Shown: positions 1,937 through 63,482 of the stretch, in pieces
How positions within the stretch are numbered: position 1 is the stretch's first letter
How the letters are laid out: each line of letters starts with the position of its first letter
IMG/VR virus record: IMGVR_UViG_3300027994_000006
Coordinates: 1-64,000 of that record
DNA length: 64,000 nucleotides
From: a virus
Taxonomy: Duplodnaviria > Caudoviricetes
Direction: 5' to 3' (one strand)
Translations under genes and position numbers: made by a program
Notes under the pieces: generated by a model
Seen by the model: only the letters and a program-made list of their open reading frames with translations
Told to the model about the DNA's origin: nothing
Databases searched by the model: none

Positions 1937-2509
1937 ATGATAAAACACGTAGAAAGAAATTTAGAGCACGAGAAAGCAGTTTTAATCTCGGAAAAGTATA
2001 AAGAATTCAACAAAAACACGCAATATAAACAATCGGTTTATGACCCGGTTTTAAGAATCAGAAGGTTTGAAGTATTAGAACGAGATCCTAGAGCAATTGA
2101 AATTAAAGCCTTCATAAAACCAGAAACACACAATAGAAAAGATAAACTTGAAAATAAGGCTATTAACAGCAAGGTTTCGCCTACACAACCAAAGTCAACC
2201 AAAGTAATTCTAAAAGAAAATTCACTTCGAGGAAAGATTTATAAAGCATATCAAGCCGGACAATCAAAGCAAGAAATTGCTGAAAGCTTGAAAATTACGA
2301 TAAGAAGAGTTTCTTCTGAAATAGGTAAGCGAAATCTACAATTAGGAGTTCAGCAAGCAGACAGAAAAAACGAAACTAGATTAAAAGTAGAAAAACTTCT
2401 CAAGAAAGAAACAAATCTTGCTACCATCGGAAAACAGTTAGGCATTGCGAGAAATACCGTTTTATATCATTACAATAAGATTCAAAAACTAAAAGTTCCG
2501 AACGGCTAA
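1937..2509 (+). CDS. Protein with two C-terminal HTH motifs (candidate transcriptional regulator)
   Basis: ATG at 1937; HTH-like segments QSKQEIAESLKITIRRVSSEI and NLATIGKQLGIARNTVLYHY. Confidence 0.6.
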   Translation: MIKHVERNLEHEKAVLISEKYKEFNKNTQYKQSVYDPVLRIRRFEVLERDPRAIEIKAFIKPETHNRKDKLENKAINSKVSPTQPKSTKVILKENSLRGKIYKAYQAGQSKQEIAESLKITIRRVSSEIGKRNLQLGVQQADRKNETRLKVEKLLKKETNLATIGKQLGIARNTVLYHYNKIQKLKVPNG

Positions 2510-2575
2510 ATCTAAGTCTCAAAGGGTACTAACAGTATCAGTAATTAATACTAACACAGGGCAAAAACAGAAATA

Positions 2576-3106
2576 ATGAGCAAATACATAGAATTAGCAA
2601 AAAAGATAAAAGCACTTGCGGATCGAGGTGTTGATGGAGAAAAAGACAATGCAGAAAAACTTCTCAAAGAAATTATGCAAAAACATAATATTTCGATTGA
2701 AGATTTAGAAGATGAAAAAATAGAATCTTTTTATTTCAATATTCCAACATACTCACACGATTTAGAATTTAAAATATTCCATCAGTTGACGGGGATTTTT
2801 GGATTAAAAACCTACGGCAAATTCTTGCCGAAAACAATCAAAGAATATGGATTAAAAGGAAATTATATGATCGAGTGCTCAAAAATTGTTTACATCGAAA
2901 TTAAAGCAAAATATGAATTTTACTGCCAACAATTTAAAACAAGGCTGGACGAATTTTTCTATGCTTTTTGTATGAAAAATAATCTTTTAGTTCCGAGCAA
3001 AAAAACAACGGACGACATCAATCCAGAGGAAAGAAAAAAGATGATTAATGCTATGAAGCTATCCAGGGAATTAGAAGCTGACAATTTCGCAAAACAAATC
3101 CAATAA
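2576..3106 (+). CDS. DUF2786-like domain protein
   Basis: N-terminus KKIKALADRGVDGEKDNAEKLLKEIMQKHNI is the typical DUF2786 helical hairpin. Confidence 0.7.
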   Translation: MSKYIELAKKIKALADRGVDGEKDNAEKLLKEIMQKHNISIEDLEDEKIESFYFNIPTYSHDLEFKIFHQLTGIFGLKTYGKFLPKTIKEYGLKGNYMIECSKIVYIEIKAKYEFYCQQFKTRLDEFFYAFCMKNNLLVPSKKTTDDINPEERKKMINAMKLSRELEADNFAKQIQ

Positions 3107-3152
3107 AAATGGATAGAGAAACAATAATCATCACATCCTAATAACTAAAACA

Positions 3153-3518
3153 ATGAACACACAAACAATGAACGGCTACACTGATAATAAAATTAAGGTA
3201 GCCAACGCCAATAAACAGCTAATCATAGCCAAATCTTTAAACAGACCAGTAATAATGTTAAGGCGTGGAGTAACGGGCGATATGCACCATAATAAGACCG
3301 CTACACCTTGCACCCGAAACTTAACAATGATGGAAAGAGCTAAAGAAGATAGAGACGATGCGCTGAAGCTTTTTGAATCTGGAATTACCTTTTCTGAAAT
3401 CTCTAAGAAGTTGAGAAAGAGCCGAAATACCATCAATAATTATTTCAAATATTGGGTTTCTGAAAACGGCGAAGATTGGGGAAAGCAAGTGAAAACCAAA
3501 AGAGACGGGAAAGGTTAG
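3153..3518 (+). CDS. HTH domain protein
   Basis: C-terminal GITFSEISKKLRKSRNTINNYF. Confidence 0.6.
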   Translation: MNTQTMNGYTDNKIKVANANKQLIIAKSLNRPVIMLRRGVTGDMHHNKTATPCTRNLTMMERAKEDRDDALKLFESGITFSEISKKLRKSRNTINNYFKYWVSENGEDWGKQVKTKRDGKG

Positions 3519-3658
3519 TCTATTTTATCTTTTTTTGCAAGATCTCGGATAGCTTGCTCAATAACATTTGCCCTCGTAGTCTGTCTTTTAGCTTTCAGTT
3601 TTTCCAAAAGAAGTTCAACTTCATCGGATATTCTAATAGATGTTAATTTCTTACTCAT
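3515..3658 (-). CDS. Ribbon-helix-helix (CopG/Arc-like) regulator, 47 aa, missing from the ORF track
   Basis: Hand translation MSKKLTSIRISDEVELLLEKLKAKRQTTRANVIEQAIRDLAKKDKID* fits the RHH strand-helix-helix pattern; promoter box TACCTTTG at 3663-3670 (minus). Confidence 0.75.
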   Translation of the reverse strand: MSKKLTSIRISDEVELLLEKLKAKRQTTRANVIEQAIRDLAKKDKID

Positions 3659-56758: not shown

Positions 56759-58510
56759 ATGTTCCGTACACACACAAACGGCGAACTAACGCTGAAAAAT
56801 CTGAATGAAAAAGTAACACTTTCCGGCTGGGTACAAACCATCCGTGACAAAGGTTTTATGATTTGGATAGATTTGCGAGACCGTTACGGCATCACCCAAT
56901 TAGTTTTAGACGAAGACAGAACTTCCAAAGAACTTTTGGAAACTGCTAAGAAATTAGGTCGTGAGTTTGTCATCAAAGTTGAAGGAACTGTAATCGAACG
57001 TACTTCCAAAAACCCAAAGATTGCAACCGGAGACGTAGAAATCTTAGTTGAAACGCTAATTATTTTAAATGAATCTCAACTTCCACCATTCACCATCGAA
57101 GACGAAACCGACGGTGGCGAAGAATTGAGAATGAAATACAGATACCTCGACATCAGAAGAAATCCGGTAAAAGACAAATTGATTTTCCGTCACAAAATGG
57201 CGCAAAAGGTACGAAACTATCTTTCCGAAGAAGGTTTCATCGAGGTTGAAACGCCGGTTCTAATCAAATCTACTCCGGAAGGTGCGAGAGATTTCGTAGT
57301 TCCAAGCAGAATGAATCCGGGACAATTTTACGCACTTCCGCAATCTCCTCAAACTTTCAAACAATTGTTAATGGTTGGCGGAATGGACAGATATTTTCAA
57401 ATCGTGAAATGTTTCCGTGATGAGGATTTAAGAGCCGACAGACAACCGGAATTCACGCAAATCGATTGCGAAATGGCGTTCGTAGAGCAGGAAGATATTA
57501 TGAATGTTTTCGAAGGAATGACAAAAGTTCTTTTGAAAGACATCACAGGAAACGAATTCCAGGATTTCCAAAGAATGACTTTCGCCGATGCGATGCAAAA
57601 ATACGGAAACGACAAGCCGGATATCCGTTTCGGAATGGAATTCCACGAGTTAAATGATTTAACGAAAGGAAAAGATTTAAAAATATTCGACGAGGCTGAA
57701 TTGGTTGTCGGAATCAATGTTGAAGGGATCGCAGATTACACCAGAAAACAAATCGACGAATTGGTGGATTGGGTAAAACGCCCACAAATAGGCGCAACTG
57801 GATTGGTTTGGATTAAATTCCAAAATGATGGCGTTGTAACTTCGTCTGTCAATAAATTTTATTCTGAAGAAGATTTGAAAAAAATCACTGAAGAATTCGG
57901 AGCAAAAGCTGGAGATTTAATTTTCGTAATGTCCGGAAACGCAGATAAAGTGAGAACCCAACTTTCCGCTTTGAGAATGGAACTCGGAAACCGTCTTGGA
58001 TTGAGAAAAGGAAACGAATTTGCACCACTTTGGGTTGTAGATTTCCCGTTGCTGGAATTTGATGAAGAATCCGGAAGATACCACGCAATGCACCACCCTT
58101 TCACGTCTCCGAAAACCGAAGATTTCCATTTATTAGAAACGGACCCAGGTAAAGCAAGAGCCAACGCATACGATCTGGTTTTGAACGGAAACGAAATTGG
58201 TGGCGGTTCTATCAGAATTTTTGACAGAGATCTGCAGTCGAAAATGTTTGACCTTTTAGGATTCTCCAAAGAAGATGCAGAAGCACAGTTCGGATTCTTG
58301 ATGAATGCCTTCAAATATGGTGCTCCACCTCACGGAGGATTGGCTTTCGGATTTGACAGATTGGTCGCCATCCTTGATGGAAATGAAGTGATTAGAGATT
58401 ACATCGCTTTCCCGAAAAACAATTCCGGACGAGATGTGATGATTGATGCGCCTGCACCGATTCATCAGGAACAGTTGACGGAACTGGAACTTAAATTGGA
58501 TTTAAAATAA
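56759..58510 (+). CDS. aspS: Aspartate--tRNA ligase, full length, bacterial type
   Basis: OB-fold anticodon-binding domain, [43 protein letters not shown] insertion, [33 protein letters not shown]. Confidence 0.98.
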
Positions 58511-62717: not shown

Positions 62718-63089
62718 GTGGTAAGTAAGAAAAGATGTTCTAACGGATGTAACTATCCAAGATTTTCGAAAGCTCTATGCAAAATATGCTGGCAAAAAGA
62801 ATATGGAAAACCCATTAAAAAGATTTCTGCCAACTATCAGAAGATTCTATCGGAGTATTCGCCTATACGGAAGGAGTATTTAGAAGCTCATGCAGAATGT
62901 GAGTTAAAGCTGGAATGCTGTACGAGAGTAGCAACTTGCATACATCACAAGAAGTCAAAACACAGCAAAGAATTATATCTCAATTCAGAGTTCTATATGT
63001 CGAGTTGTGTTCCTTGTAACGGAAGAGTAGAAGAACTTGGAGAAGAGGCGTACCGATTAGGTTTGAAAGTTAGACATAATACAAAATAA
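62718..63089 (+). CDS. HNH-type endonuclease with N-terminal Zn finger
   Basis: CSNGC...CKIC; CELKLECC...CIHHKK...CVPCNGRVE; promoter box TATCTTTG at 62687-62694. Confidence 0.7.
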   Translation: MVSKKRCSNGCNYPRFSKALCKICWQKEYGKPIKKISANYQKILSEYSPIRKEYLEAHAECELKLECCTRVATCIHHKKSKHSKELYLNSEFYMSSCVPCNGRVEELGEEAYRLGLKVRHNTK

Positions 63090-63202
63090 GAGAAGTGGCG
63101 AAATATGAGACGCAGGCCTATATGGCAAAAACAAAGGATGAAGTATAAACATCCCATCTATCCGGATAGATGAATTGCAGGTATCGAATCCTGTCTTCTC
63201 TT
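63089..63202 (+). ncRNA. tRNA-like RNA 1 with non-canonical anticodon region (114 nt)
   Basis: Acceptor AGAGAAG/CTTCTCT; D-arm GCG/CGC; T-arm GCAGG-TATCGAAT-CCTGT; three hairpins between the D and T arms. Confidence 0.7.
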
Positions 63203-63214
63203 TTTAAAATATTT

Positions 63215-63334
63215 GGGAAAGTAGCTCAGAAATAGGTTAGAGCGATTGAACTTAATTGGTTTGGAAAACCAGCATTTAAAAAAGCTATTAAATGTGTCTC
63301 CAGTAGGTCAGCGGTTCTATTCCGTTCTTTTCCA
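63215..63334 (+). ncRNA. tRNA-like RNA 2 with expanded anticodon loop (120 nt)
   Basis: Acceptor GGGAAAG/CTTTTCC; D-arm GCTC/GAGC; variable loop AGGTC; T-arm AGCGG-TTCTATT-CCGTT; about 50 nt with two hairpins in place of the 7-nt anticodon loop. Confidence 0.75.
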
Positions 63335-63339
63335 CATTT

Positions 63340-63450
63340 AACAAACCATCACTCACGAGTGAGTTGCGTAAACATAATTACAAAGGTGTAGATAACAGCA
63401 CTACAAGGGTGTTTCAAATGTCATCCTAAATTGCCTGCTGATGGTTTGTT
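63340..63450 (+). ncRNA. Structured RNA (multi-branch junction)
   Basis: Perfect 12-bp closing stem AACAAACCATCA/TGATGGTTTGTT enclosing ACTCA/TGAGT, TGTAG/CTACA and GGGTG/CATCC hairpins. Confidence 0.55.
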
Positions 63451-63482
63451 TTATTAATAAATAATTTAAAATAATATATATA

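Follow-up and report, generated by a model that had tools for sequence, protein, structure and literature searches.

Phages are usually taken to carry tRNA genes for codon supply, or else to escape anticodon nucleases. Other phage RNAs that lie beside tRNA genes have tRNA-like ends and no known function, such as the species 1 and 2 RNAs of T4 and RNA1 of T5, and we know of no alanine identity in any of them. In mycobacteriophage DS6A, a TLD-only (tag-less) tmRNA has been described (Hudson et al. 2014, PMC4131195; tmRNA database 2025, PMC11915505), and a molecule similar to it was reported to inhibit tmRNA, perhaps via titration of SmpB (PMC4131195, PMC11915505). The DS6A RNA is the closest published counterpart of the RNA described here, a tRNA mimic that keeps its acceptor and elbow and carries two hairpins where the anticodon loop belongs.

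The window, by which we mean the whole 64,000-nt stretch of DNA that was analysed, covers the first 64 kb of a phage contig from IMG/VR that is 80.9 kb long and has a G+C content of 34%. The phage has genes for an integrase and the large terminase, a capsid module and an AspRS gene of bacterial type, and the relatives of its capsid and AspRS proteins point to Flavobacteriia as hosts. The mimic sits in a 394-nt gene-free gap (63090-63482) between co-oriented genes. All of the features that the original prediction had listed for it, namely the acceptor stem, T8-A9, the D stem, G26, the ATTG/CAGT stem, the AGGTC variable loop, the T arm and the lack of an encoded CCA, were recovered at the positions collected in Table 1. 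The acceptor stem (GGGAAAG/CTTTTCC) has 7 bp, including a single G.U pair, G3.U70, and CCA is not encoded in the gene because the bases after A73 are CAT. The Rfam tRNA model (RF00005) matched 63215-63334 end to end over model positions 1-71, with 36.7 bits against a cut-off of 29 and an E-value of 4e-6 for a 601-nt stretch or 1.4e-7 for the whole 81-kb genome; 52 nt of insert stood for 9 model positions in this alignment. It is the sole match to the tRNA model in the phage genome. The match was found on searching a short stretch, the whole-window Rfam search at gathering thresholds having missed it through its speed filters. As had been anticipated, ARAGORN at default settings made no call, whether for the window or for the whole genome and whether or not introns were allowed; once its thresholds were lowered (80-90%), it gave an implausible tRNA-Phe(aaa) whose D arm is distorted.

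Table 1. Positions of the mimic, its parts and neighbouring features in the window
Feature	Position	Strand	Basis or detail
tRNA mimic	63215-63334	+	cloverleaf read in sequence
Acceptor 5' strand GGGAAAG (G1, G2, G3)	63215..63221	+	pairs with 63327-63333
U8-A9, D stem GCTC/GAGC, 12-nt D loop with G18G19, G26	63222..63244	+	Rfam tRNA alignment
Anticodon-stem remnant (4 bp), 5' strand ATTG	63245..63248	+	partner CAGT at 63301-63304
5' linker, 8 nt, single-stranded, AACTTAAT (RNA: AACUUAAU)	63249..63256	+	constrained fold
Insert hairpin 1, TGGTTT-GGA-AAACCA (RNA: UGGUUU-GGA-AAACCA)	63257..63271	+	constrained fold
Insert hairpin 2, GCATTTAA-AAAAGCTA-TTAAATGT (RNA: GCAUUUAA-AAAAGCUA-UUAAAUGU)	63272..63295	+	constrained fold; abuts hairpin 1 directly
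3' linker GTCTC (5 nt) and stem-remnant 3' strand CAGT	63296..63304	+	fold, relatives
Variable loop AGGTC and T arm AGCGG-TTCTATT-CCGTT	63305..63326	+	Rfam alignment
Acceptor 3' strand CTTTTCC (U70) and discriminator A73	63327..63334	+	read in sequence
RNA e1, second tRNA-like RNA	63089..63202	+	fold z-score -3.3; 12 nt upstream of mimic
RNA e3, structured, closed by 11-bp stem	~63340..63455	+	fold z-score -2.35
Cys-rich ORF, 123 aa	62718-63089	+	CxxC...HH...CxxC motifs; just upstream of RNA cluster
AspRS gene, complete, bacterial-type	56759-58510	+	tRNA_anti-codon, tRNA-synt_2 and GAD domains

Folding the insert with the ATTG/CAGT stem enforced gave the two hairpins of Table 1, in agreement with the proposed two-hairpin domain. 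This 52-nt module takes the place of the last stem pair as well as of the 7-nt anticodon loop, so that in place of the 5-bp anticodon stem, 7-nt loop, U33 and purine 37 of a decoding tRNA, a 4-bp stem closes a 52-nt junction. The 5' linker offers no U33/R37 register, and no register of insert removal restores U33-NNN-R37 on a 5-bp stem, just as had been noted from the letters alone; the early dismissal of a group I intron also holds, since 52 nt is too short for one and Rfam finds no ribozyme. The mimic cannot decode, having no usable anticodon loop, and the description of it as a non-decoding, acceptor- and elbow-keeping tRNA mimic is borne out. The T loop of the window copy has an unusual U57, where close relatives have G57, and the copy in the near relative L005 has A18 in the D loop; the elbow of each would be slightly weakened by these changes.

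The identity of the body is that of an alanine tRNA. G1-C72, G2-C71, G3.U70 and A73, the AlaRS identity set, can all be read directly in the window copy, and the only G.U of its acceptor stem is the alanine identity pair. AlaRS does not use the anticodon for recognition. The T arm of the mimic is nearly identical to that of host tRNA-Ala. To place the remaining sequence, the 5' and 3' halves of four members were compared with 27 distinct tRNAs of Flavobacterium caseinilyticum. For the window copy and those of L004 and L021, tRNA-Ala(TGC) was best and tRNA-Ala(GGC) second; for L023, tRNA-Ala(TGC) was again best, with second place tied between tRNA-Ala(GGC) and tRNA-Gly(GCC). Similarly, a covariance model built from five mimic members (R1) and searched in 151 Flavobacteriaceae genomes matched ordinary 74-nt tRNA genes with 58-64 bits in 143 of them, and in G001, a genome with named tRNAs, its two matches in that range are tRNA-Ala(TGC) genes. 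Among the matches listed, the insert-bearing form occurred in one already-known genome only (98.7 bits, 111 nt). Judged by these sequence comparisons, the body of the mimic is an alanine tRNA. The decoy 'for synthetases' that was among the original suggestions can therefore be narrowed to AlaRS by the tRNA-Ala body and by G3.U70/A73, an alanine identity that had gone unnoticed.

Two near relatives of the window phage were found via capsid homologues: L004, which has a 97% identical capsid and also carries the AspRS gene, and L005. A pattern scan added L023, a Chryseobacterium aquaticum phage contig, and L021, a Flavobacterium prophage. Close relatives were not found by blastn (cultured phages), by peptide-pattern scans for the neighbouring ORF or capsid, or by an exact 24-mer, and the mimic is absent from the more distant capsid relatives L007-L019. 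In the window-type subgroup, which comprises the four sequences from the window, L004, L005 and L023, 97.8% of cells pair. Five pairs have changed on both sides, namely two in the acceptor (4:69, A-U to G-C, and 7:66, G-C to A-U), one in insert hairpin 1 (G-C to A-U) and two in insert hairpin 2 (A-U to C-G, and U-A to C-G with a U.G intermediate in L023), counts that are small because there are only four such sequences; when partners were slid by 1-3 columns as a control, zero pairs changed on both sides. G3.U70 is kept in five of five members while 4:69 and 7:66 alternate between A-U and G-C, and the D and T stems are 100% paired in the relatives. The covariation that had been proposed as a check is thus present in the acceptor and in both insert hairpins, and the decaying tRNA that its absence was to have indicated is not what we observe.

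Other parts of these copies do not vary. The ATTG/CAGT stem is invariant in the window, L004, L005, L023 and L021, and the 8-nt 5' linker is invariant in the four window-type members although the adjoining hairpin stems vary. The 3' linker reads GTCTC in the window, GTCAC in L004 and L005 and GTTAC in L023, and because of these differences the apparent GUC 'anticodon' is not conserved. In L021 the same scaffold and ATTG/CAGT stem enclose a 46-nt insert that is unrelated in sequence and forms one long hairpin. The mimic is a conserved gene under selection, on the basis of the compensatory changes in its relatives, and the alignments provide good but not overwhelming evidence that its tRNA stems and insert hairpins are both maintained.

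To see how far this design extends, three further IMG/VR pattern scans were combined with the model and revealed about 14 more members in other phages, for a family of 18 checked members from phage contigs and one prophage. The scans fixed the T arm, and one of them also the 3' acceptor strand, so the conservation of these parts is to some extent built into the search; no constraint was placed on position 3, on the D arm or on the lower half. G3.U70 and A73 are found in 18 of 18 members, a figure in which the conservation of U70 is partly by construction because the scan patterns fixed the T arm or 3' acceptor strand, so that only G3 was free, and none of the 18 encodes CCA. The acceptor of the further members is GGGGAAG/CUUCUCC or a near variant, followed by a trailer that begins C-A or C-G, and they have in common the D stem GCUC/GAGC, the D-loop GG, GGUC and the AGCGG/CCGUU T arm. 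Across the family the D-loop GG is kept with the single exception of A18 in L005. In a scan that fixed the T arm alone, G3.U70/A73 was present in 16 of 21 distinct over-long genes as compared to 1 of 24 normal-length genes.

The lower halves, by contrast with this fixed upper half, come in at least 12 designs. In L097, L103 and L100 the anticodon arm is a stub of 10-13 nt, L097 being a bare scaffold of 64 nt, and in L104 it is a 4-bp stem with a 6-nt loop, while the arms of other members are unrelated structured modules of 45-70 nt. Six members have an extra 10-47 nt in the D loop, upstream of G18G19. For example, L105 and L106 have a D-loop insert in common and different arms, whereas L105 and L092 have an arm module in common and different D-loop inserts; D-loop and anticodon-arm inserts recombine independently and reshuffle as modules. 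The inserts share no motif across the family. Rfam aligned the members with D-loop inserts to the two ends of tmRNA, with scores (22.6-25.2 bits) that stay well under the cut-off of 47. One of the early proposals, a decoy for anticodon nucleases (PrrC, RloC or PARIS-type), is unlikely because there is no anticodon loop: the recognised part is missing here and varies freely in the family. At L104:14050-14120, ARAGORN reports the alanine scaffold with its 6-nt anticodon loop as 'tRNA-???' with a 2-nt anticodon. A match in Synechococcus phages was discarded as a family member, being an ordinary unannotated 73-nt tRNA.

The surroundings of the mimic vary between phages. In other phages the family lies directly upstream of the small terminase gene, and in one phage group an ORF of about 124 aa (no known family) precedes the mimic and terminase and portal genes follow it. 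Near-identical scaffold sequence recurs in phages with unrelated neighbouring genes, and no partner protein adjoining the mimic was found that is common to all phage groups. In the window, the Cys-rich ORF at the head of the RNA cluster, first read as an HNH nuclease, drew a blank in Pfam at E 0.01, and its match to phrog_7108, a PHROG of unknown function, was weak (E 1.4e-4). A Pfam search of about 110 phage ORFs identified AspRS as the only translation gene; no RNA ligase, RtcB, splicing endonuclease or CCA-adding enzyme was detected, nor any Ro60 (TROVE) or aminoacyl-transferase (Fem-type or L/F). The AspRS is 63-67% identical to proteins on Bacteroidota-like contigs, and we found no link between its gene and the alanine-type mimic. 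An Asp anticodon tied to this enzyme, whose gene lies 5 kb upstream, had been considered from the U-GUC-A-C of the L004/L005 3' linker and was rejected: position 37 is a U in the window, the L023 linker gives GUU, neither motif occurs in L021, and the identity elements belong to alanine.

Two further structured RNAs flank the mimic. The upstream e1 combines a leucine-tRNA-type D arm (GUGGCGAAAU..AGACGC) with an 8-nt T loop (UAUCGAAU), U73 and three extra hairpins, and received no Rfam call. In L004 and L005 its acceptor, D and T parts are conserved and its interior of about 60 nt is swapped for unrelated sequence, within flanks that are 93-97% identical. Leucine-like modules similar to e1 also adjoin the alanine mimic in L021 and L023. 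The downstream e3 is about 97% identical in L004 and L005 and is followed by a U-rich run, a possible terminator-like end of the RNA cluster. Between mimic and e3, L004 (3825-4115) and L005 (211-462) have a segment of about 320 bp with an ORF of 83-96 aa (no known family), which is absent in the window phage (63335-63339); the indel falls exactly at the tRNA-like 3' end (after ..CCAC).

More elaborate arrangements were encountered elsewhere. In L021, a 1.4-kb gene-free RNA chain (2270-3650) contains the alanine mimic, at least two leucine-like modules, a tRNA-like gene with a 6-nt anticodon loop and acceptor mismatches (3224-3295, Rfam 40 bits) and a permuted tmRNA, and has phage structural genes on either side (crAss muzzle C-terminal domain, Big_9). 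Circularly permuted, two-piece tmRNAs (RF04321) are located at L018:454-681 (-), on the contig of a related phage, with 59.7 bits, and at L021:3302-3614 (+), with 45.1 bits; the L018 tag is GNTQSLRAVA* according to ARAGORN, and the L021 frame apparently ends in ..PLRAVA*. The main clades known for permuted tmRNA are Alpha- and Betaproteobacteria and Cyanobacteria (PMC11915505), and phages of Flavobacteriia may be a further source. Three tRNAs of other viral contigs, at L094:7176-7285, L094:7289-7389 and L093:5771-5864, have inserts of 20-36 nt beside an otherwise canonical anticodon loop and are similar in this to the Lak phage tRNAs with 'enigmatic introns'. One in L094, tRNA-Ile(UAU), has its short insert at 37/38, which the ARAGORN intron option reports as tRNA-Ile(tat) with a 36-nt intron.

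Several other explanations of the mimic deserve weighing against these data. The tRNA-Ala body could be a natural scaffold for small-RNA cargo, providing folding, RNase P/Z processing and stability for inserts that are the active part, for example in protein binding or as antisense. Such a role would suit the compensatory changes that keep both insert hairpins, the conserved insert sub-types that are common to different phages and reshuffle as modules, and the behaviour of e1, whose scaffold persists although the interior has been exchanged between phages with 93-97% identity in the adjoining sequence. It is nevertheless rather unlikely, given that L097 is bare and has no cargo, that several members have only stubs of 10-13 nt, that the inserts have no motif in common and no complementary target of at least 11 nt in the phage genome outside the mimic gene, and that a mere scaffold would not need to retain G3.U70/A73. 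That the mimic is instead a TLD-only, tmRNA-like inhibitor, which would bind SmpB (and EF-Tu if charged) and block or redirect host trans-translation in infection, strikes us as quite improbable, even with a published phage TLD-only RNA that is reported to inhibit tmRNA (PMC4131195, PMC11915505). Mimic and tmRNA do have alanine identity in common, for relatives that carry an insert in the D loop there is a match to the tmRNA model at its ends (22.6-25.2 bits), and true permuted tmRNAs exist in related phages and a prophage. The window copy, however, matches tRNA and not tmRNA, and its nearest sequence is tRNA-Ala rather than any tmRNA. SmpB binding is not implied because the mimic has a normal, canonical 4-bp D stem, which is absent from the tmRNA TLD. 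Moreover, in L021 a mimic and the permuted tmRNA that belongs to the prophage itself lie in one cluster, which fits poorly with inhibition of trans-translation. We also have serious doubts about a purely cis-acting role, in which the tRNA shape would be an RNase P/Z signal for processing or stability that splits the mRNA of the upstream ORF from the downstream genes, with no function in trans. The position of the mimic would fit such an element: the genes on both sides of its 394-nt gap run in the same direction, the tRNA-like e1 lies 12 nt upstream, and in other phages the small terminase gene follows directly. RNase P and RNase Z, however, require neither G3.U70/A73 nor a particular tRNA-Ala sequence, and the retention of G3.U70 and the full core, in nearly the same scaffold sequence beside unrelated genes, would be left unexplained.

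Two readings would make the locus an ordinary tRNA gene, intact or broken. An intron-bearing tRNA that is spliced to a decoding form, as with the 'enigmatic' short introns of Lak megaphage tRNAs, has precedents in the inserts at 37/38 beside a canonical loop in other viral contigs (L094 tRNA-Ile(UAU)) and in Lak phages (PMC6784885); moreover, the 5' linker can be read as a 7-nt loop ACTTAAT with anticodon UUA, and the L004 3' linker as U-GUC-A-C. It is extremely unlikely all the same, since U33-NNN-R37 on a 5-bp stem cannot be obtained by any excision, ARAGORN makes no default call even when introns are allowed, the candidate 'anticodons' vary among relatives (GUC, GUU) and L021 has neither motif, members with 10-nt stubs lack any loop, a group I intron would need a longer insert and Rfam sees no ribozyme in this one, and no RNA ligase or splicing endonuclease is found among the approximately 110 phage ORFs (Pfam). 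A decaying tRNA-Ala pseudogene, broken by insertion, would explain the missing ARAGORN call, U57 in the window copy and A18 in L005, yet it is scarcely credible beside the compensatory changes in the insert and acceptor stems, a tRNA core that is intact in 18 members from different phages, and a design that recurs with many inserts. Separately, three tmRNA-related candidates were examined and rejected. A mini-tmRNA with its tag frame in the insert is ruled out, as no insert frame has a stop, and so is one with its tag frame in e3, which has no T arm and is set apart by an intervening ORF in L004 and L005. As for membership in a permuted tmRNA, only a weak match (21.9 bits, E 0.68) was seen, over the 3' end of the copy in L021, and a 5' acceptor strand is part of the mimic itself.

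A non-decoding mimic of tRNA-Ala is what we are left with, because the relatives keep the design with compensatory changes while the lower half varies. We favour, with moderate confidence, an alanine-accepting molecule that acts via its upper half, either as a titrant or as an alanine donor. The mimic would be transcribed in one plus-strand unit with the upstream Cys-rich ORF and its two neighbouring RNAs, RNase P and RNase Z would excise it as they do a tRNA, and the host CCA-adding enzyme would append CCA; many tRNAs called by ARAGORN in the Flavobacterium genome are likewise without an encoded CCA. Host AlaRS, blind to the anticodon, would then presumably load alanine onto it. Because it has no anticodon arm, the mimic should not be accepted as a normal tRNA in the ribosomal A site. 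The upper half could bind and titrate a factor that recognises the acceptor or elbow of (alanyl-)tRNA, for instance SmpB, or a toxin or defence protein of the host with tRNA 3' ends as its target; alternatively, the mimic might donate its alanine to some acceptor other than the ribosome. On this view the lower half would be an appendage that is either tolerated or has a modulating effect. At least one phage retains nothing more than the bare scaffold, and for this reason the acceptor and elbow are the most probable seat of the function. A bolder version, to which we attach only a small chance, is that these RNAs form a distinct phage 'alanyl-carrier' class with a fixed AlaRS-chargeable handle and, on the anticodon arm and in the D loop, interchangeable modules. 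Their charged end would deliver alanine non-ribosomally or disarm a host monitor of tRNA 3' ends, and the modules would set the partner or the condition.

Whichever role applies, neither codon supply nor escape from anticodon nucleases can fit a conserved family in which alanine identity and the tRNA core persist and the anticodon arm is dropped or freely swapped. Our literature search found no description of tRNA-Ala-derived, anticodon-less, modular phage mimics, and the new point is a single scaffold that carries interchangeable lower halves, here in temperate phages of presumed Flavobacteriia hosts. If charged, it would be a phage tool that exploits host AlaRS outside decoding, and might serve in ribosome-rescue inhibition, as a sponge for acceptor-end factors or in alanine donation. 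Standard annotation misses such mimics, as ARAGORN makes no call and Rfam needs a short-stretch search; therefore the 'tRNA-less' gaps of phage genomes may hide many. This natural modular design also parallels the engineered tRNA scaffolds used for recombinant RNA expression.

Set beside known systems, the mimic resembles each in part. Like the DS6A TLD-only tmRNA, it is phage-encoded, has an alanine-type upper half of acceptor and T arm, and contains neither message nor anticodon. Unlike the DS6A RNA, it is derived from tRNA-Ala, with a normal D stem, G26, variable loop and anticodon-stem remnant. Indeed, the tmRNA models RF00023 and RF04321 gave no match to the window RNA at gathering or E-value thresholds, and its canonical D stem and the lack of an insert ORF with a stop both set it apart from tmRNA. 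The YrlA or Y RNA-like mimics (Chen et al. 2014, PMC4201824; RF02553) are likewise non-decoding, occur in phages too, and copy the D arm, T arm and acceptor. The 'acceptor' of YrlA, however, is a closed stem-loop and the ends of the RNA lie in the Ro60-binding stem (PMC4201824), whereas the mimic ends in a normal open acceptor stem with alanine identity; neither an RF02553 match for the window RNA nor a TROVE domain in the phage ORFs (Pfam) was found. The short tRNA introns of Lak megaphages (Devoto et al. 2019, PMC6784885) are also short, conserved inserts in the anticodon region, in phages of Bacteroidota, but the Lak genes were read as typed tRNAs that have an anticodon once the insert is removed (PMC6784885), whereas no anticodon loop can be restored in the mimic and its family includes arm-less stubs. 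Closest in sequence is the canonical tRNA-Ala (RF00005), which is the best match of both halves and with which the mimic has G1-C72, G2-C71, G3.U70, A73, the T arm and the elbow nucleotides in common; in place of its 7-nt anticodon loop and NGC anticodon, the mimic carries 52 nt that form two hairpins.
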